From Candidatus Limnocylindria bacterium (lineage in GTDB: Bacteria; Chloroflexota; Limnocylindria; P2-11E), in NCBI GenBank assembly GCA_036518215.1, contig DATDNP010000083.1, positions 1 through 51,861 on the forward strand: 51,861 bases of DNA. The letters are read 5' to 3'. Positions within the stretch are counted from its first letter, which is position 1. The number at the start of each line of letters is the position of its first letter. The translations under genes and the position numbers were made by a program. Of this stretch, positions 8,248 to 39,146 are shown one piece after another. The notes below the pieces were generated by a model. It ran no database searches and was not told where the DNA came from. It worked only from the letters and a program-made list of their open reading frames with translations.

Positions 8248-9069
8248 CTAGCGCTGTTCCTCGGCTGCGGCGACGACATTGCGCAGCAACAAAGCCGTGG
8301 TCACCGCGCCGACGCCGCCAGGCACCGGGGTCACTGCTCCCGCGACGTGAGCAACGCTCTCGCCGTCCGCATCGCCGGCGATGCCCGACGGCGTCACGTT
8401 GATCCCGGCGTCGATGACCGTCGCGCCCGGCTTCAGCATGTCCCCGCGCAGGAAGCCCTTGCGACCGATCGCGACCACCACGATGTCCGCGCTCCGCGCA
8501 TGCGCGGCGATGTCCGCGGTCTTGCTGTGCGCCAGGGTCACCGTCGCGTCCTCCTGGAGCAGCAGGCTCGCGACGGGTCGACCGACGATGGGGCTCCGCC
8601 CGATGACGACGGCGTTCGCGCCGCGCAGCGGGACCTCGTAGAAGCGAAGGAGCTCGAGGATCGCCTCCGCGGTCGACGGTATGAAGCGCGGCCGTCCGAG
8701 CGTGAGACGCCCGACGTTCTCCGGATGCACGCCCTCGATGTCCTTCGCGGGCACGATCGCGGCGGTCATGCGCTCTTCGCTCATCCCGTTCGGGAGCGGC
8801 GTCAGCATGAGGACGCCGTGCGCGTCGCTGCGGCGGAGGGCATCCGCGAGCGCGCGTTCATCGGCCGCGACGACGCGCTCGTCGAGCGAGACACCCAGCT
8901 CCGTGGCGAGCTTGCGGATGCGCCCGAGGTACGAGCTCGCCGCGGGGTCGGCGCCGACGCGTACGACGTCGAGCCTCGGTGTGATCCCCTGCGAGCGAAG
9001 GGAGGCGATGCGTTCCTTGGTCCCCCCGTTCACCCGCTCCGCGACGGGACGCCCGTGGAGCAGGCGCAT
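8248..9069 (-). CDS. folD: Methylenetetrahydrofolate dehydrogenase/cyclohydrolase
   Basis: VGADPAASSY, KDIEGVHPEN, VVIGRSPIVGRP, VIDAGIN and TPVPGGVGAVTTALL. Confidence 0.96.
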   Translation of the reverse strand: MRLLHGRPVAERVNGGTKERIASLRSQGITPRLDVVRVGADPAASSYLGRIRKLATELGVSLDERVVAADERALADALRRSDAHGVLMLTPLPNGMSEERMTAAIVPAKDIEGVHPENVGRLTLGRPRFIPSTAEAILELLRFYEVPLRGANAVVIGRSPIVGRPVASLLLQEDATVTLAHSKTADIAAHARSADIVVVAIGRKGFLRGDMLKPGATVIDAGINVTPSGIAGDADGESVAHVAGAVTPVPGGVGAVTTALLLRNVVAAAEEQR

Positions 9070-19732: not shown

Positions 19733-20625
19733 GCGGCGAGCGAGGCCGCCAGCTCGGCGGCGATCCGCGCGTTCTGGCGGAGGAGCGCGACGTTCGCGCG
19801 CAGGCTCCTCCCGCTCGTCGCGTCGCCGAGGGCGCCGAGCAGGAACGGGGTGAGGGCGGCGCCGCGGACGCCGGAACGTTCGGCGGCCTCGACGGCGCGA
19901 GCGACCTCGGCCTCGGCCGCGCCGCGCTCGAGCGCATCCGACGACGCGATCGGGACCGCGATGACGAGGCCCGCGCCGCGCGCGAGCTGCTCACGCGCGA
20001 TCCGCGCGGCGCTCGCGGCATCGTCGACGCGATGCGGAAGACGCAGCCCGCTGGCGCGCACGTAGAACGCGGGGAATTCGTCGGTCGCGTAGCCGATCAC
20101 CGGGACGCCGAGCGTCTCGAGGCGCTCGAGCGTGAGCGCGAGGTCGAGCACGAGCTTCGCGCCGGCGCAGACGACGCACACCGGATGTCGCGCGATCGCC
20201 TCGAGATCGGCGGATTCGTCGAAGGACCGCTCCGCGCCGCGATGGACGCCGCCGATCCCGCCCGTCGCCATCACGGAGATCCCGGCGCGCGCCGCGATCT
20301 CGACCGTGGCGGCCACCGTCGTCGCGCCGAGCGTGCGCCGCGCGAGCACCGGCGCGATATCGCGCAGGCTCACCTTCGCGACGCCATCCTCGTTCGCGAG
20401 GCGCGCGAGGAGCGCGTCATCGACGGCCACGACGGCGCGTCCGTCGGCGAGCGCGATCGTCGCGGGCATCGCCCGCGCCGCGCGGACGTCCGCCTCGAGC
20501 GCGCGTGCCGTCTCGAGGTTCATCGGACGCGGTAGTCCGTGCGCGATCACCGTTGACTCGAGCGCGACGACGGGCGCGCGCGCCGCGATGGCGGCTGCGA
20601 CGTCAGGGCGGATCGCCAGGTTCAC
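19729..20625 (-). CDS. psuG: Pseudouridine-5'-phosphate glycosidase
   Basis: VALESTVIAHGLP, KVSLRD, ATTVAAT, ATGGIGGVHRG, DESADL, GAKLVLD and LTPFLL. Confidence 0.95.
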   Translation of the reverse strand: MNLAIRPDVAAAIAARAPVVALESTVIAHGLPRPMNLETARALEADVRAARAMPATIALADGRAVVAVDDALLARLANEDGVAKVSLRDIAPVLARRTLGATTVAATVEIAARAGISVMATGGIGGVHRGAERSFDESADLEAIARHPVCVVCAGAKLVLDLALTLERLETLGVPVIGYATDEFPAFYVRASGLRLPHRVDDAASAARIAREQLARGAGLVIAVPIASSDALERGAAEAEVARAVEAAERSGVRGAALTPFLLGALGDATSGRSLRANVALLRQNARIAAELAASLAA

Positions 20626-21122
20626 GTCCTGCGGTGGCCCGTCTCGCCGCTCTCGCCGGCGAGGAGCTCGACGGCGTGGGGGAGCACCGGCAGCAGCACC
20701 TCGAGCGATTCGCGCACCGCGCGCGGCGAGCCCGGCAGATTCACGACGAGCGTCGCGCCGACGGCGCCGGCGACGCCGCGCGACAGCATTCCGTGGGGGG
20801 TCTTGTCGAGCGAGCGCGCGCGCAGCGCCTCGGCGATGCCCGGTATCTCCCGGTCGATGACGCGGCGCGTCGCCTCGGGCGTGACGTCGTTGGGTGAGAG
20901 TCCCGTCCCGCCGCTCGTGAGCACGACGTTCGCGCCGCTCCGCACGCCGTCGAGGATCGCGTTCGCGACGGCGGCGACCTCGTCGCTCACGAGCGCGGTC
21001 ACGAGCACCTCGTGCCCTGCGGCCGTGAGGGCGTCTCGCATCGCCGGTCCGCTCTCGTCGACCCGCTGCCCGGCCGCGCCCTTGGTGCTCACGGTGATGA
21101 CCGCCGCACGCACGGCGGTCAT
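20622..21122 (-). CDS. mog: Molybdopterin adenylyltransferase, MogA/MoaB family
   Basis: [33 protein letters not shown] and NLPGSP. Confidence 0.92.
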
Positions 21123-21595
21123 TCCGCGCGGTACTCCCCGCTCCGCCCGCCGCTCTTCGCGACGAGACGGACGTCCGTGAGGCGCGCGCCGCGCTCGACC
21201 GCCTTCAGCATGTCGTACAGCGTGAGCCCCGCGACCGTCACCGCGGTGAGCGCCTCCATCTCGACGCCCGTCGGCGCCGTCGTGCCGACGGTCGCCTCGA
21301 TCGCGATGCCGTCGCGCTCGAGCACGAGGTCGACCGACGCGTGCGAGATCGGGAGCGGATGGCAGAGCGGGATGAGATCGGGCGTGCGCTTCGCCGCCAT
21401 GATCCCCGCGATGCGCGCCGCGGCGAGCACGTCGCCCTTCGGAGCTTCGCCGGTGCGCACGAGCTCGAGCGTCGCGTGCGACACGAGCAGCTTTCCGCGG
21501 GCCGTCGCGCGTCGATCCGTCGGCGGTTTCGCGCTCACGTCCACCATGCGCGCGGCGCCCTTGCTGTCGACGTGGGTGAGCTTCTTCGTGGCCAC
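21119..21595 (-). CDS. moaC: Cyclic pyranopterin monophosphate synthase
   Basis: [50 protein letters not shown] and KSGGRSG. Confidence 0.97.
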
Positions 21596-21597
21596 CT

Positions 21598-21735
21598 CTA
21601 ATGGTCCTGCTCGATCTCGTGCTTCGCACGAGACGCGCTCATGGCTGGTGGTGTCCGCTCCTCGCGGTCACGCTCGCTGCGCTCACTGACAGGGGCCCCT
21701 CCCCCTGACCGCTCGTCGCTCACGTCAATGGTCCT
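21598..21735 (-). repeat. Short palindromic insertion-like element between moeA and moaC, flanked by 9-bp direct repeats and carrying a 41-aa ORF
   Basis: AATGGTCCT at 21600-21608 and 21727-21735. Hairpins at 21615-21633 and 21690-21707. ORF runs from GTG 21723 to TAG 21598. Confidence 0.7.
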
Positions 21736-22975
21736 CGGGGAGATCCGTGAGGATCACGTCGACGGTCGTGCCGGGCTCGCCCGCGGCGAGCGGCTCCGGA
21801 AGCTCGATGAGGCAGTTCGCGAGCGACATCGAGCGCAGGATCCCCGATCCCTGAGGACCGGTCGACCGGACGGTCGCGCTCTCGCGGTCGTAGATGCCAC
21901 GCGCGAACATGCGCAGTCCGACGGGCTTCTCGATGCGGTCCTGCAGTGTCGCCTTCGCGACCGGGCGATGCAGCTTCTCGCGCCCGGACAGCTTGAGGAG
22001 GGCCGGTCGCACGAACAGCTCGAACGTGAGGAGTGCCGACACCGGATTGCCCGGCAGGCCGAAGATCGGCACCGTGCCGCGCTTCGTCCGGAGCTCGCCG
22101 AACGCCAGCGGCCGTCCCGGCCGGATCGCGATCGACCAGAAGTCCATCGAGCCCATCGCCTCGACGACCGGCTTCATGTGGTCGTGGTCGCCGACGGACA
22201 CGCCGCCGCTCGTGATGACGATGTCGCCGAATGCGGCGTTGCCGAGAGCGTGCCGGAGGTCGCTCGCCTCGTCGCGCGCGATACCGAGCTCGAACGGCGC
22301 ACAGCCGGTCGCGCGTACCGCGGCCGAGATCGAGTAGCGGTTCGCGTCGCGGATGCGGCCGGGTCCCGGCGTCTCGGTGATCTCGACGAGCTCGTCGCCG
22401 GTCGAGAGCACGGCGACGTTCGGACGCCGTACGACCCTCACCTGCGCACGGCCGATCGACGCGAGCACGCCGAGCTCGGGCGCACGCAGCACGGCGCCGC
22501 GCCGGATGACCGTCTCGCCCTCGCGCAGGTCCTCGCCGGCCTGGCGCACCGAGAGGCCCGTGGGCGTCGCGCGCTCGATCGACACGGTCTCGCCGCCGTT
22601 GTCGGTGTCCTCGACGCGCACGACCGTGTCGGCGCCGTCGGGCATCGGCGCTCCGGTCATGATGCGCATCGCCTGGCCCGGTCCGACGCGGCCCTCGGGC
22701 ATCTGGCCCGCCGCGATCGCGCCGACGACGGTGAGGCGGACGCCATCGCGCTGCACGTCCTCACCGCGGACGGCGTAGCCGTCCATCGCGGAATTGCGGA
22801 ACGGCGGGACGTCCCGGTCGGCGCGCGCGTCCTCCGCGAGCACCATGCCGAGCGCGTCCGAGAGCGCGACCTCGGTCTCCTCGAGCGGCGCGATACGCGA
22901 CAGGATGCGCTGGAGCGCCTCGTCGACGGAGAGCGATCGTGTGGCGGCGCGCGCCGCGCTCGGGCTCGTGGGCAT
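21725..22975 (-). CDS. moeA: Molybdopterin molybdotransferase
   Basis: PFRNSAMDGYAV, IMTGAPMPDGADTVV, STGDEL, DANRY, TSGGVSVGD, PGRP and GLPGNPVSA. Confidence 0.97.
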   Translation of the reverse strand: MPTSPSAARAATRSLSVDEALQRILSRIAPLEETEVALSDALGMVLAEDARADRDVPPFRNSAMDGYAVRGEDVQRDGVRLTVVGAIAAGQMPEGRVGPGQAMRIMTGAPMPDGADTVVRVEDTDNGGETVSIERATPTGLSVRQAGEDLREGETVIRRGAVLRAPELGVLASIGRAQVRVVRRPNVAVLSTGDELVEITETPGPGRIRDANRYSISAAVRATGCAPFELGIARDEASDLRHALGNAAFGDIVITSGGVSVGDHDHMKPVVEAMGSMDFWSIAIRPGRPLAFGELRTKRGTVPIFGLPGNPVSALLTFELFVRPALLKLSGREKLHRPVAKATLQDRIEKPVGLRMFARGIYDRESATVRSTGPQGSGILRSMSLANCLIELPEPLAAGEPGTTVDVILTDLPEDH

Positions 22976-22985
22976 CGAGCGAAGT

Positions 22986-24071
22986 CTAGTTTCCGGTGCT
23001 CTTTGGCTGGTGCGGCAGCAGGTGCGGTCCCGTGGCCTTGAAGGACGCGATGACGGATGCGCCTTCGTCGAGCCCGAGCTCCCGCGCCGACTGTCGCGTG
23101 ACGTGTGCGACGAGCGGGAAACCGCAGTCGAGCGTGAGGCGGACGCGGCGGCCGATCGTCTCGACCCGCGTGATGCGCGCGTCGAACGCGTTGCGCTCGC
23201 TCGAGCTGCCGCGCGCGCGCGCGATCACCACGTCGTCGGGCGTGATGAGGAGGAGCACCGCCGTCGCTCCGTCGGGGGGCTGCTCGGTCACGGACACGAG
23301 CGCGCTCCCGACTCGCAGGAGCGTCATCTCGTCCGTGGAGCGCTCGACGGTCGCCGGCAGCACGTTCTCGACCCCGACGAACGCCGCCACGTTCTCGTCC
23401 ACCGGACGGCTGAAGACGTCGTCCGCCGAACCCTGCTGGCGCACGCGTCCGCCCATGAGCACCGCGACACGGTCCGCGAGCGCGAGCGCCTCGTCGCGGT
23501 CGTGCGTGACGAGGATCGTCGCGACGCCCGAGTCGCGGAGCACGCGCCCGATGTCGGTGACGAGCGCGCGCCGCGTCGGCGTGTCGAGACCGTTGAACGG
23601 CTCGTCGAGGAAGAGGATCTCGGGTGACAGCGCGAGGGCGCGCGCGATGGCGACGCGCTGCGCTTCGCCGCCGGAGAGTCTCGTCGCACGTCGGTCGGCG
23701 AGCTTCTCGACACCGAGCCGCTCGAGCGCCGAGAGTGCGGCGCGGTCCGACTCGTCCCGAGACACACCGCGGAGCGTGAGGCCGAGCGCGGCGTTGTCGC
23801 GCACGCTGCGATCGAGGAGGAGCGGTCGCTGGAACACGACGCCGATGCGGCGACGGAACGCGAGCGGGTCCGCGATCTCCGCACCGTCCGCGCGCAGCGT
23901 GCCGCGCGCGGGGATGAGCGTGGCGAGCGCGAGCAGGAGCGTCGTCTTCCCGGCGCCGTTCGGTCCGAGCACGACCAGGATCTCGCGCTCGGCGAGCTGG
24001 AGCTCGTCGACGCGGACGACCTCGCGGCCATCGCGCTCGACGACGAGGTCGCGCGCCTCGAGCGCGGTCAT
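22986..24071 (-). CDS. ABC ATPase with C-terminal TOBE domain (TupC/ModC/WtpC-like)
   Basis: GPNGAGKT, LSGGEAQRVAIARAL, LFLDEPF and VTHD, then a TOBE-like LVAHVTRQSARELGL...ASFKAT. Confidence 0.9.
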   Translation of the reverse strand: MTALEARDLVVERDGREVVRVDELQLAEREILVVLGPNGAGKTTLLLALATLIPARGTLRADGAEIADPLAFRRRIGVVFQRPLLLDRSVRDNAALGLTLRGVSRDESDRAALSALERLGVEKLADRRATRLSGGEAQRVAIARALALSPEILFLDEPFNGLDTPTRRALVTDIGRVLRDSGVATILVTHDRDEALALADRVAVLMGGRVRQQGSADDVFSRPVDENVAAFVGVENVLPATVERSTDEMTLLRVGSALVSVTEQPPDGATAVLLLITPDDVVIARARGSSSERNAFDARITRVETIGRRVRLTLDCGFPLVAHVTRQSARELGLDEGASVIASFKATGPHLLPHQPKSTGN

Positions 24072-36039: not shown

Positions 36040-37818
36040 ATGCGAAGGATCATCGCCGCGACGATCCTCGCGATCGTCGCGCTCATCGCGACGAGCGGCT
36101 CGAACGGGACGGCGTCACCGGAGCAGGCGGCTGGCGATGCCGCCGTGTTCGGCCCCATCGGCCTTCCGTCGATGGCACCGGGCGCCACGGTCTACGTGCA
36201 GATGCGCGTGACGAATGCCGGATCGACGACATGGTCGAGCCCCGCGATCGCGCTCGCGTATCACTGGTACACCACATCCGGCGCGCTCGTCGTGTGGGAC
36301 GGACAACGGACCGCGCTCGGCACCGTCGACCCCGGCGCCTTCGTGTGGGTGGGCGCGCGCGTGGTCGTTCCGTCGACGCCGCGCGACTACATCCTCGCGT
36401 TCGAGGTCGTCCGCGAGGGCGTGTCATGGTTCGGGAATGCGGTGACGATGCCGGCACGCGTCGAGGGCGAGACGTATCGCGCGCTCTACACGGTCGGTGC
36501 CGGCGCGAGCGTGCCGGTCGGCGACTACGTCGAGATCCCCGTCAGCGTGACGAACGCCGGGACCGCGACATGGCACGCGACCGGCGCGGGTCTCGTCGCG
36601 CTCGCGTACCACGTGTACGACGCGTACGGGCAGCTCGTCGCGTGGGACGGAGAGCGCACGCGCCTCGTGACGGACGTCGCGCCGGGCGAGACGCGTGTTC
36701 TGAACATGCGGGTGAGCGCGCTACCCGGCGCGGGCGACTACACGATCCGCGTCGATCTGGTGCACGAGGGCTTCGCGTGGTTCTCGACGCTCGGCTCGCC
36801 GCTCGTCGACACGAAGGTGCGCGTGTGGGGTGGCTTCGGCGCGGTCGAGGCGCCCGACGTCATGTGGGCGGGCGCGTATGGCACCGCGAACGTGAGCGTC
36901 ACGAACACGACGCGATCGACGTGGCGCGCCGGCGGGACGAACCCGGTGCGGCTCTCGTACCACGTCTATCGCTCCAGCGACGGCCTGCTCGTGTGGGACG
37001 GCGAGCGAACGTCGCTTCCGTTCGACATCGCACCGGGCGCGACGGTCTATCTCAAGGCGTATCTCCGCGCTCCGGCGACGCCCGGCGACTACGTCTACGC
37101 GTGGGATCTCGTGGAAGAGGGCGTGTCATGGCTCTCGTCCCGCGGCGTCGCCGCAGTGAGCGATCTCGTCACCGCGCGGGCGCTGCCGGCATCGCTCATC
37201 GCGACCGAGTGGTCGCGCATCCCGACGACCGACCGCGTCGTCGCGCTCACCTTCGACTGCGGCGCCAACGCCGACGGCGCGCAGAAGATCCTCGACGCGC
37301 TCGCGCAGAAGAACGTGCCGGCCACGTTCTTCCTTACCGGCAACTTCGTCCGGAGCTTCTGGAACGCGTCGCTCGCGATCGCCGACCGCTATCCGGTCGG
37401 GGACCACACCATGACGCATCCCGATCTGCGCACGCTGACCGATGCCGACGTCGCGAACGAGATCCACACCGGCGAGCTCGAGCTCTTCCAGCTGCCCGGC
37501 GATCCGCACCCGCTGTTCCGCTTCCCGTATGGCGGGAGCGATGCGCGCACCATCGCGATCGCGAACGCGTACGGGTACGGCGGCATCCGCTGGACGGTCG
37601 ACACGCTCGGCTGGGAGGGCACCTCGGGCGGACAGTCCGTCGCGACCGTAACGAGCCGCGTGCTCGCCTCGCTCCAGCCCGGCGAGATCGTCCTCATGCA
37701 CGTCGGATCGAATCCCGATGACCGATCGACGCTCGACGCTGACGCGCTCGCCGGCGTCATCGATCAGATCCGCGCTCAGGGCTACACGTTCACGACGCTC
37801 ACCGACTACGTCCCGTAG
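36040..37818 (+). CDS. Secreted polysaccharide deacetylase (CE4/NodB) with three N-terminal Ig-like repeats
   Basis: Signal-like MRRIIAATILAIVALIA. Three V.VTN.G..TW...YH.Y....WDG.RT.L units. NodB motifs LTFDCG, TFFLTG, HTMTHPDL, FRFPYG, WTVDT and IVLMH. Confidence 0.9.
   Translation: MRRIIAATILAIVALIATSGSNGTASPEQAAGDAAVFGPIGLPSMAPGATVYVQMRVTNAGSTTWSSPAIALAYHWYTTSGALVVWDGQRTALGTVDPGAFVWVGARVVVPSTPRDYILAFEVVREGVSWFGNAVTMPARVEGETYRALYTVGAGASVPVGDYVEIPVSVTNAGTATWHATGAGLVALAYHVYDAYGQLVAWDGERTRLVTDVAPGETRVLNMRVSALPGAGDYTIRVDLVHEGFAWFSTLGSPLVDTKVRVWGGFGAVEAPDVMWAGAYGTANVSVTNTTRSTWRAGGTNPVRLSYHVYRSSDGLLVWDGERTSLPFDIAPGATVYLKAYLRAPATPGDYVYAWDLVEEGVSWLSSRGVAAVSDLVTARALPASLIATEWSRIPTTDRVVALTFDCGANADGAQKILDALAQKNVPATFFLTGNFVRSFWNASLAIADRYPVGDHTMTHPDLRTLTDADVANEIHTGELELFQLPGDPHPLFRFPYGGSDARTIAIANAYGYGGIRWTVDTLGWEGTSGGQSVATVTSRVLASLQPGEIVLMHVGSNPDDRSTLDADALAGVIDQIRAQGYTFTTLTDYVP
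36170..37180 (+). repeat. Three tandem intragenic Ig-like domain repeats (~116 aa each)
   Basis: WDG codons at 36295, 36643 and 36994, spaced 348 and 351 nt apart. Confidence 0.8.
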
Positions 37819-37927
37819 CGCGCGCGAGTGCCATCGGCATGGCGCGGTGTGCTCGTCTCGCTCGTCTAACGGGCACGCCCGCCCGCTCATCACTCGCAGG
37901 CTCGCTGCGTGGTAGTCGGAGAACGTC

Positions 37928-37955
37928 GAGAGCCCCGAGCGAACTCGGGGCTCTC
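37928..37955. terminator. Strong hairpin between convergent genes (probable gltA terminator)
   Basis: Perfect 12-bp stem GAGAGCCCCGAG-CGAA-CTCGGGGCTCTC, giving a UUCG loop on the minus strand. Confidence 0.8.
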
Positions 37956-37979
37956 GTTCGATGACGGTGTGCGGGCGCG

Positions 37980-39146
37980 TCAGCGCTCGGCGATCGGGAT
38001 GAACTTCTTGCCCATCGGTCCCGTGTACTCGGACTCGGGGCGGATGAGCCGGTTGTCGGCGTGCTGCTCCATGATGTGCGCGCACCAGCCGCTGATGCGG
38101 CCCACCGAGAAGAGCGAGGTGCCGAGGTCCGCGGGGATCCCGAGGAACGTGTACGTCGTCGCGGCGAAGAAGTCGACGTTCACGATGTTCACCTTCGCGG
38201 CCGCGGCGGGCGACATCTTCGGGCGGCGCTCGGCGATCGCCTGCACGAGCTTCTCCTGGATGTCGTAGTACTTCGGGCCCTTCCAGTCCTTCTGCAGCTC
38301 GCCGGCGAACTTGCGGAGGAACTTCGCCCGCGGGTCCTCGGTCTTGTACACGCGGTGACCGAAGCCCGAGAACTTGTACTTGCGCTCGATGGCCTTGTCG
38401 ACCCATGCGTCGACGTGCTCGGGCGAGCCGATCTCGTCGAGCATCTTCATCGTCCCGTCGGTGGCACCGCCGTGGAGCGGACCCTTGAGCGCGCCGAACG
38501 CGGCGGTGACGCTCGCGTGCATGTCCGCCTCGGTGGCCGCGACGATGCGGGCCGTGAAGGTCGAGGCGTTGAGACCGTGCTCCGCCTGGAGGATGAAGCA
38601 TGTGTTCAGGATCTCGGCGGCGCGCGGGTGGGCCTCGTCGATGCCGGCCATGCGCGCGAAGTTCGCGGCGTGGCCGAGGGCTGGGTCGGGCGGAACGGGC
38701 TGCTCGCCCTTGCGCCGGCGGATGTATGTCGCGAGGATCGTCGGGAGCTTCGCGGTGAGCCGGATCGACTTGCGGTACTCGGCCTCGCGCGAGTTGTCCC
38801 CCTCGGCGGGGTCCTCGACCGCCGCGGCGGACACGACCGTGCGGAGCACGTCCATCGCCGTGCCCGATTCGGACATCTCGAGGAGGATCTGGCGGAGGAA
38901 CGGCGACAGTGCGCGGTGCTTCGTCAGCTCTGCCTTGAAGTCCCGGAGCTGCTCCTTGTTCGGAAGATCGCCATTGAGCAGGAGATAGGCGACCTCCTCG
39001 TATTCGGCCTTCGTGGCGAGCTCCTCGATCGGGTATCCGCGGTAGACGAGGAGGTTGTCCTCGACCTTGCAGATGGCGGTCGAGGCGGCCACGACGCCTT
39101 CGAGACCGCGTGGGGATGCGGCAGGCGCCGCTTTTTCAGTAGTCAT
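37980..39146 (-). CDS. gltA: Citrate synthase / 2-methylcitrate synthase
   Basis: GLEGVVA, YRGY, AEHGLNASTF, LKGPLHGGA, GFGHRVYKTEDPR, NVDFF and RISGWCAH. Confidence 0.95.
   Translation of the reverse strand: MTTEKAAPAASPRGLEGVVAASTAICKVEDNLLVYRGYPIEELATKAEYEEVAYLLLNGDLPNKEQLRDFKAELTKHRALSPFLRQILLEMSESGTAMDVLRTVVSAAAVEDPAEGDNSREAEYRKSIRLTAKLPTILATYIRRRKGEQPVPPDPALGHAANFARMAGIDEAHPRAAEILNTCFILQAEHGLNASTFTARIVAATEADMHASVTAAFGALKGPLHGGATDGTMKMLDEIGSPEHVDAWVDKAIERKYKFSGFGHRVYKTEDPRAKFLRKFAGELQKDWKGPKYYDIQEKLVQAIAERRPKMSPAAAAKVNIVNVDFFAATTYTFLGIPADLGTSLFSVGRISGWCAHIMEQHADNRLIRPESEYTGPMGKKFIPIAER

Follow-up and report, generated by a model that had tools for sequence, protein, structure and literature searches.

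Among described repeats, the closest analogues of the element reported here are the MIRUs (interspersed repetitive units of mycobacteria). As summarised from Supply et al. 1997, MIRUs are 40-100 bp long, occur in 40-50 copies and are intercistronic, with filled and empty sites, 4-nt direct repeats and frames that overlap the neighbouring genes (PMC3184786). They are described as mobile, inserted at start codons and carrying an internal frame coupled at -4 spacing with minimal effect on expression (PMC12548453). Two other classes invite comparison: repetitive extragenic palindromic sequences and bacterial interspersed mosaic elements (REP/BIME), which are short GC-rich extragenic hairpins of enterobacteria and pseudomonads (PMC3184786), and miniature inverted-repeat transposable elements (MITEs), such as Correia elements (PMC3184786). 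Here we describe the spacer between moeA and moaC at positions 21,598 to 21,735 of a 51,861-nt stretch of DNA from a Candidatus Limnocylindria bacterium (the window, by which we mean this whole stretch). A first-pass annotation made from the sequence alone had called this spacer the footprint of a mini-insertion that preserves translational continuity. We conclude, with a probability of roughly 75%, that the spacer arose recently, when a non-autonomous 118-nt element from a modular family of Limnocylindria repeats was inserted; both genes are intact, and the element would be crossed by a ribosome relay and may have spread without a classical cut-and-paste transposase.

We compared the spacer with the same junction in related genomes. 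The window comes from G000, a 222-contig metagenome-assembled genome (MAG) that is approximately 91% complete; other G-numbers (G001, G003 and so on) denote related genomes, C-numbers contigs and L-numbers loci. The moaC locus was gathered from 60 related genomes, and none of the 28 relatives with a readable moeA-moaC junction carried the 118-nt element there. In nearly all 28, moeA ends in GAGGACCA(T/C) followed by TAG or TGA. Alignment of the junctions revealed empty sites in the nearest relatives, where moaC begins 0-6 nt past the moeA stop (G003, GAGGACCAT-TAG-TG-GCC; G018, ...TAG-CCG-GTG; G025 and G013, ...TAG-GTG). In more distant relatives the 25-66 nt at this place are coding and give MoaC a basic N-terminal extension (VPARKR...), with no spacer. 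Such an extension, of 10-20 residues, is present in many members of the genus and is missing from G000 and its nearest relatives. The sequence that marks an empty allele is ...GAGGACCATTAGAGGTGGCC....

In the window, moeA and moaC lie on the minus strand, and the exact 9-mer AGGACCATT (plus-strand form, AATGGTCCT) occurs twice, its copies 127 nt apart and enclosing 118 nt (Table 1). What the first-pass annotation had stated about the sequence proved correct throughout. On the gene strand the moeA side reads ...CCC GAG GAC CAT TGA C GTG AGC GAC GAG CGG, followed 5' to 3' by TCAGGGGGAGGGGCCCCTG TCAGTGAGCGCAGCGAGCGTGA CCGCGAGGAGCGGACA CCACCAGCC ATG AGCGCG TCTCGTGC GAA GCACGAGA TCGAGC AGGACCATT; after this right copy the moaC side continues AG AG GTG GCC ACG AAG.... 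The last moeA codons are GAG GAC CAT, and the C-terminus ...PEDH, which is conserved in relatives, is kept. The present moeA stop, TGA (21727-21725), is composed of the last T of the duplicated 9-mer and GA, the first two bases of the insert, so the insert does supply a new stop as had been proposed. The moaC gene starts with GTG at 21595-21593, and the 14-16 nt upstream of it, which contain the old moeA stop, are still the original ones. Because the right copy followed by TAG-AG-GTG matches the junction of relatives, the right copy corresponds to the ancestral moeA end, and the moeA terminus is present twice. Excision of the segment with one repeat had been predicted to give a tight junction, and relatives have just such short junctions. 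Together, the empty sites and the duplicated moeA end show that the 118-nt segment was inserted and that this duplicated 6-9 bp of target (AGGACCATT) and left moeA and moaC intact. We found no promoter-like or terminator-like site in 21300-22000, so nothing obvious marks the spacer as the boundary of a transcription unit. At the same junction G016 carries a 29-nt mini-insert, TAGC-GTGAGCGACGAGCGGGACCGGGACGGCTGA-TGCC, whose first 15 nt are the same as those of the window element and whose 9-codon frame ends in a TGA overlapping the moaC ATG. Whether it hit the junction independently or is what is left of a copy, by truncation or decay, each of these origins is possible for this mini-insert.

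Comparison of the insert with its own genome showed that it is a dispersed repeat with related copies in G000 and its relatives. The family was searched with nhmmer and a covariance model, which replaced a fuzzy search with a 13-mer core that returned mostly noise. The element is a composite of modules that we call A, D and B, with D nested inside A. Within G000, A+B copies lie at recO-glyS (C12), pgk-eno (C201), nuoJ-nuoK (C51) and on C100, and seven more contigs hold copies in which A is combined with other modules. Composite A-D-B copies that match the insert at 79-83% identity over 110-116 of 121 nt were found at other loci in G006, G003, G013 (several), G036 and G073, the last two belonging to another genus. 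The word footprint therefore has to be withdrawn: the composite element is complete, and other species have relatives of full length elsewhere. The module A covariance model found 1-45 copies in 35 of the 37 genomes of one Limnocylindria family (f1), covering all nine of its genera, and copy number spans 0-45 within one genus. Outside this family, 5 of 24 genomes of the class gave a weak hit, at most one each, and an exact-pattern scan of all species genomes had nearly all its matches in Limnocylindria/Chloroflexi MAGs of soil, groundwater or lake origin. As far as these sequence searches reach, the repeat is confined to one Limnocylindria family of the Chloroflexota. Our literature search turned up no description of it and no paper on Limnocylindria repeats.

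Among 99 evaluable public copies, the upstream gene was on the same strand in 52 and on the opposite strand in 11, and the upstream same-strand stop ended a median of 6 nt before the element. The same orientation bias was seen in G000 and its relatives. The element is thus a sense-oriented feature placed just 3' of a stop codon.

Other loci provided further evidence of mobility. Flanking duplications of other copies are 7-15 nt long (Table 1), and cognate flanks matched each other better than non-cognate ones in permutation tests (p=0.018 for 19 A+B copies; p=5e-5 for 11 composite copies, window copy excluded). The orthologous site of the G013:C124 copy, which is flanked by a perfect repeat, is empty in G000, where it reads CGATGAAG (...GCG CG ATGA AG...). 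Since G013 is in turn empty at moeA-moaC, the two species are reciprocally filled and empty. At pgk-eno, the ancestral arrangement is an 8-nt overlap (ATGCCTGA; L105-L130); in G000 an A+B element sits at the eno ATG, supplies a new pgk stop (PDA* to PDK*) and has a repeat of only 2 nt. The same junction holds a cassette of another type, named deoC-type here, in one copy in G017 and in two tandem copies in G015. The nuoJ-nuoK junction is filled in G000, G014, G008, G006 and G011, and contains remnants (B hairpin and AGGAG-like tail) in G013, G019, G023, G009 and G007; some 13 species have it empty (L081-L104). Such a pattern would arise if selection had long retained the element or if a hot spot had been hit repeatedly. 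Between lineages, the B stems at nuoJ-nuoK differ by compensatory changes (CTGGGC/GCCCAG, CTGGCC/GGCCAG, CGGGCC/GGCCCG).

Table 1. Coordinates of the inserted element, its modules and neighbouring genes in the window, and flanking repeats of copies at other loci
Feature	Location	Strand	Evidence or remark
Inserted composite element, 118 nt, architecture A5'-D-A3'-linker-B	21609..21726	-	junction of relatives without the element
Direct repeat, upstream copy AGGACCATT, native moeA end	21727..21735	-	exact match and relatives
Direct repeat, downstream copy AGGACCATT	21600..21608	-	with AG (21599-21598) gives TAG, the ancestral moeA stop
Module A 5' arm GTGAGCGACGAGCGG	21709..21723	-	family consensus nnCGAGCGA[C/G]GAGCGG; covariation
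Module D TCAGGGGGAGGGGCCCCTGTCAGTGAGCGCAGCGAGCGTGA, nested in loop of hairpin A	21668..21708	-	nesting recurs in copies of relatives
Module A 3' arm CCGCGAGGAGCGGACA	21652..21667	-	pairs with 5' arm; covarying position is C...G in the window
Module B	21609..21651	-	linker CCACCAGCC-ATG-AGCGCG, hairpin TCTCGTGC-GAA-GCACGAGA (21615-21633), 3' end TCGAGC
41-codon frame, GTG to TAG, whole element	21598..21723	-	1 nt after moeA TGA, 2 nt before moaC GTG
moeA (molybdopterin molybdenumtransferase)	21725..22975	-	Pfam: MoeA_N, MoCF_biosynth, MoeA_C, all complete
moaC (cyclic pyranopterin monophosphate synthase), intact	21119..21595	-	complete MoaC domain (Pfam)
Flanking repeat of another copy	G013:C124		perfect 15-mer ATGACAGGAAGATGA
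Flanking repeat of another copy	G000 nuoJ-nuoK		14/17 nt
Flanking repeat of another copy	G013:C198		approximately 13 nt
Flanking repeat of another copy	G036:C77		7 nt

To describe the element itself, we relied on covariation because generic energy models undervalue its G.A-zippered stem. Module A has the consensus nnCGAGCGA[G/C]GAGCGG-loop-CCGCGA[C/G]GAGCGAG, and in its hairpin Watson-Crick pairs alternate with three invariant tandem G.A/A.G steps, which are able to form on the gene strand only. The bracketed positions co-vary, being G...C in five copies and C...G in six. In the alignment, 92.9% of cells were paired and 6 of 9 pairs had compensatory changes; none of 500 shuffles did as well, and sliding the partner by one column reduced pairing to about 20%. 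Module B has the consensus CCACCAGCC-NTG-AGCGYG, then a hairpin, then GAGATYGAGCAGG. Its stem combines a fixed base (TCTC/GAGA) with an upper part that is variable in almost every copy, and its cap is a GNA triloop with a closing C-G pair. Folding each copy separately gave the same hairpin in 17 of 17 copies despite their differing upper stems; RNAalifold on a MAFFT alignment of module B misaligned the variable upper stem and recovered the conserved stem base alone. We take the module A pairing and these module B folds as signs of selection on structure. The 3' end, GAGATYGAGCAGG, looks like a Shine-Dalgarno (SD) site. Module D, 41 nt long, comprises the CAGGGGGAGGGGCCCCTG hairpin (CAGGGG...CCCCTG, 21690-21707) and TCAGTGAGCGCAGCGAGCGTGA; this hairpin and the GAA-capped hairpin of module B had both been noticed from the sequence, and both are present. 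For the spacer as a whole, the RNA fold was not significant (z=-1.25), and the DNA fold gave z=-2.96 for the sense strand and -2.17 for the antisense strand. We also considered a molybdenum cofactor riboswitch or another Rfam RNA and rejected both: cmscan of 20500-23500 at E<=1 returned two chance miRNA hits, elsewhere in moeA.

Module D (CAGGGGnAGGGGCCCCTG and TCAGCGAGCGnAGCGAGCGTG, about 41 nt) occupies the hairpin loops of other modules. It lies in the loop of A in the window and at nuoJ-nuoK of G011 (L102). One G013 copy (L133, G013:C221) has it twice, in the A loop and in the B loop, and in G001 (L069) it lies inverted within the loop of B. Nesting of D in A also recurs in copies of G013, G006, G003, G036, G073 and G076. 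Judged by these positions, D resembles a second-order element with hairpin loops as its target.

Might the element instead be mainly a cis-acting RNA or a protein-binding site, for example an mRNA stabiliser, a processing site or a tuner of translation, as proposed for REP/BIME, with its spread secondary and its open frame a by-product of T-poor composition? We consider this unlikely, although it is the strongest of the alternatives. A structure with G.A pairs on the gene strand only, covarying stems with invariant G.A steps and linker, the 52:11 orientation with genes and the placement right after stops would all be expected of such a site. So would the persistence of the B hairpin and SD-like tail at nuoJ-nuoK in several species, where the 5' part has been deleted and the stems have changed in a compensatory manner. 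However, the element is found at moeA-moaC in only 1 of 29 genomes, its copy number varies from 0 to 45 within one genus, the neighbouring genes are unrelated and it matches no Rfam family. Covariation, moreover, is also typical of mobile hairpin repeats, since their enzyme recognises the fold.

We also examined how translation might cross the inserted element. The 41-codon frame described in the first-pass annotation is confirmed, as are its distances from the moeA stop and the moaC start. It begins with a GTG at 21723-21721, which has GAGGA 9 nt upstream and which arose by a change from the consensus in the module A 5' arm, and it ends on the gene strand as CAG GAC CAT TAG AG GTG GCC. In all eight curated intra-operon copies, the upstream stop and the downstream start are joined by an unbroken chain of small frames, where dinucleotide shuffles predict 2.85 such cases; in this test frames were linked within +-8 nt, often as ATGA or GTGA. 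At moeA-moaC, pgk-eno and nuoJ-nuoK the last frame closes in frame on the ancestral upstream stop, and in canonical copies the three frames are closed by TGA/TAA/TGA, and the 3' end, which is AGGAG-like, lies a few bases short of the following start. From this arrangement, translational continuity between moeA and moaC is structurally preserved, a ribosome relay through the element is plausible, and the 41-codon frame is possibly a path for ribosomes rather than a protein gene.

The following sequence of events would account for the locus. The element entered the 5-nt junction ...GAG GAC CAT TAG AG GTG..., duplicating 6-9 bp, and the operon transcript would now contain a structured spacer between moeA and moaC. 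Ribosomes finishing at the moeA TGA would restart at the GTG 1 nt further on, served by the GAGGA that would formerly have served moaC. They would then read 41 codons through the hairpins, end on the ancestral TAG and restart at the moaC GTG. A relay of this kind would keep moaC translationally coupled and would melt the hairpins.

Several points weigh against this account of a recent insertion and relay. Most older copies have no clear flanking repeat, and no mobilising enzyme was identified for the family; the incomplete G000 assembly could lack an enzyme gene or a source copy. For the window locus alone, about 36-37% of insert shuffles also relay when the duplication is held fixed. The eight relay cases were selected by us and are non-independent, five of them being possibly orthologous nuoJ-nuoK copies, and GC-rich DNA is poor in stops, which favours open relay frames. 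The same 350 nt around the insert hold further 8-10-nt repeats, and the right copy begins with AGG, three bases that the element 3' consensus GAGATYGAGCAGG also contains, so the duplication in the strict sense may comprise only the 6 nt ACCATT, with another 3 nt of microhomology. The G016 insert, which starts with GTGAGCGACGAGCGG at the same junction, could mean that an older shared insertion was lost in other lineages, not that the element was gained recently.

Some of these points bear on a second alternative, which we judge to be quite improbable: that the 9-mer match is coincidence or microhomology and that the segment either arose with no target duplicated, as recombination might produce it, or is an older spacer that relatives have lost. 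Exact 9-mers spaced 100-160 nt apart occur in the G000 genome at 4.8e-5 per position pair, or approximately 0.59 expected per 200-nt stretch, and because of this the 9-mer repeat alone is weak evidence. The recurrent 8-10-mers, the shared AGG, the repeat of only 2 nt at pgk-eno and the related insert in G016 point the same way. Against this, the probability of a 9-mer repeat at the pre-defined boundaries (+-5 nt) is about 0.006, and an imperfect flank match runs further, over 13 of 16 nt (AGGACCATT-GACGTG vs AGGACCATTAGAGGTG). The moeA terminus is physically present twice, with the right copy and TAG-AG-GTG as in relatives and the left copy forming the conserved end; repeats of 13-15 nt flank other copies, for which matching empty sites exist, and the permutation tests were significant. 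The repeats noted in the first-pass annotation are weak evidence on their own; it is the comparative data that decide for a duplication.

The last alternative, that the 41-codon frame encodes a functional small protein, has in its favour an open frame with a GTG and GAGGA that fits tightly between two genes and the use by several copies of the same frame across module B (...A-M/L-S-V/A-S...E-I-E/G-Q...), but we regard it as very improbable, given that the 41-aa product has no Pfam match and a low-complexity composition, that substitutions keep base pairs and not residues and that TGA stops break the frames in canonical copies. Module B also measures 33-36 nt from TGAGCG to the element 3' end, a length divisible by three in only 10 of 17 copies, and its internal ATG is TTG or CTG in most relatives; with length and start codon both variable, the frame is not conserved as a coding sequence.

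Returning to the insertion of a mobile element, we asked which enzyme might have moved it. A Y1 HUH transposase (RAYT or IS200/IS605 type, PF01797) was found in 0 of 26 genomes of the genus, with 6 of 14 controls positive, and a reverse transcriptase (PF00078) likewise in 0 of 26, with 3 of 14 controls positive. The insert has no terminal inverted repeats: its ends are GACGTGAGCGAC... and ...GAGATCGAGC, and none of the 19 inverted repeats found is terminal, in agreement with the earlier statement that it is not a classical MITE. The lack of inverted ends and of HUH or reverse transcriptase genes in the 26 genomes, together with variable 6-15-bp duplications, points to staggered breaks or microhomology-guided template switching. 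The element may thus have spread by one of these routes and not by a classical cut-and-paste transposase.

A broader proposal combines these elements into one undescribed Limnocylindria system, a possibility that we hold tentatively and with more doubt than belief. In it, strand-specific modular mini-elements would insert at stop/start junctions with variable-length target duplications, having no terminal inverted repeats and using neither an HUH transposase nor a reverse transcriptase. They might move through folded single-stranded DNA (G.A-zippered hairpins with GNA triloops) and microhomology-guided template switching. Operon coupling would be kept by a translation relay that each carries itself, made up of a restart codon, an open frame, stops in three frames and an SD site, and module D would enter the hairpin loops of first-order elements as a second-order element. 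If true, this would be a convergent counterpart of MIRUs and possibly a new mode of DNA mobility.

The reciprocal filled and empty sites indicate active or recently active mini-elements in an unstudied, uncultured class, at the tightest points of operons. The elements appear to be tolerated through duplication of the stop/start junction and a path for ribosomes through them. This would extend MIRU-type behaviour beyond mycobacteria and provides natural spacer insertions for research on translational coupling. It also raises a mechanistic question of how sequences without inverted ends, with 6-15-nt duplications and with no HUH or reverse transcriptase gene found in the genomes searched, can move. 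For annotation, the elements create spurious small open reading frames and wrong start codons in these MAGs. One example is glyS: in the G000 copy at C12:~8912-9006 (recO-glyS; L002), the module B ATG is in frame with glyS, and GlyRS is called from MSVSPGRRPEIGRDYES..., so that its annotated N-terminus is probably element-derived.

Two further observations concern repeats in these genomes. Module A also forms tandem arrays with a period of approximately 74-134 nt and a CGAGTGACAACGAG module (G015:C53:15362-15608; G013:C117:16779-16890; G014:C33:37-163), which are reminiscent of MIRU-type variable-number tandem repeats. A supposed recurrence of the element at 37800-38050 of the window (37.9 kb) was rejected, as this region has loose GAGCGA-type words only and no copy of the element. 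It contains a perfect 12-bp-stem hairpin, GAGAGCCCCGAG-TTCG-CTCGGGGCTCTC, which may be a terminator or another type of repeat.

We finally compared the family with known systems, beginning within the same genome. Approximately 12 copies of the deoC/sucC-type cassette, GGTGG-CAGGGGCnGAGCCCCTG-CGAAAAGAGG...CATGnCGGCGAAGCCGnCATGA, are present in G000. Copies of this type (GGTGG-CAGGGGCnnAGCCCCTG-CGAnAAGAGG...CATGnCGGCGAAGCCGnCATGA) were located on C5, C20, C83 (17233-17320, 47918-48031), C87, C96, C110, C115, C129, C134, C190 and C201. Like the window element, these cassettes insert at gene junctions with a coupled mini-frame and have CAGGGG...CCCCTG and C-GAA-G caps, but they lack modules A and B and lie at start codons, not right after stops. 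The first-pass annotation was therefore right that motif types are shared between the two; the window insert is nonetheless a separate A-D-B cassette and not of the GGTGG-CAGGGG...CCCCTG-CGAAAAGAGG type.

REP/BIME elements depend on RAYT transposases. The Limnocylindria family resembles them in its GC-rich hairpins, its module mosaics, its position 3' of genes or within operons and its covarying stems, and effects on mRNA stability have been proposed for such elements. It differs in being strongly orientation-specific and flanked by duplications and in having no conserved REP-type 5' tetranucleotide, and assignment to a REP/BIME-RAYT system fails because no Y1 HUH transposase gene was found in the 26 genus genomes. 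With MITEs it shares small size, non-autonomy, structure and target duplications; that assignment fails for want of terminal inverted repeats and because the duplications are not of fixed length (6-9, 7, 13, 14 and 15 nt). A retro-transposed element, in which target-primed reverse transcription gives variable duplications, fails on the absence of PF00078 from the same 26 genomes.

The likeness to MIRUs is closer. Both are short interspersed repeats between operon genes, in gene orientation, a description that the window copy fits. Both have an internal frame that abuts or overlaps the stop and start of its neighbours, as it does in the window (TGA-C-GTG ... TAG-AG-GTG), filled and empty sites between species, short flanking direct repeats and, at times, tandem arrays. 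The Limnocylindria family belongs to another phylum, the Chloroflexota, and has its own consensus; it is likened to MIRUs by description. Its elements consist of hairpin modules that can be separated and nested and that have tandem G.A pairs and GNA triloops, and its duplications are variable, 6-15 nt, whereas those of MIRUs are 4 nt. Its frame is often a relay of two or three mini-frames joined by ATGA or GTGA, and its canonical copies have stops in three frames and an SD-like 3' end. By analogy of function, MIRUs are the closest analogue, and we would describe the family as MIRU-like intercistronic repeats without filing it as a member of the MIRUs.

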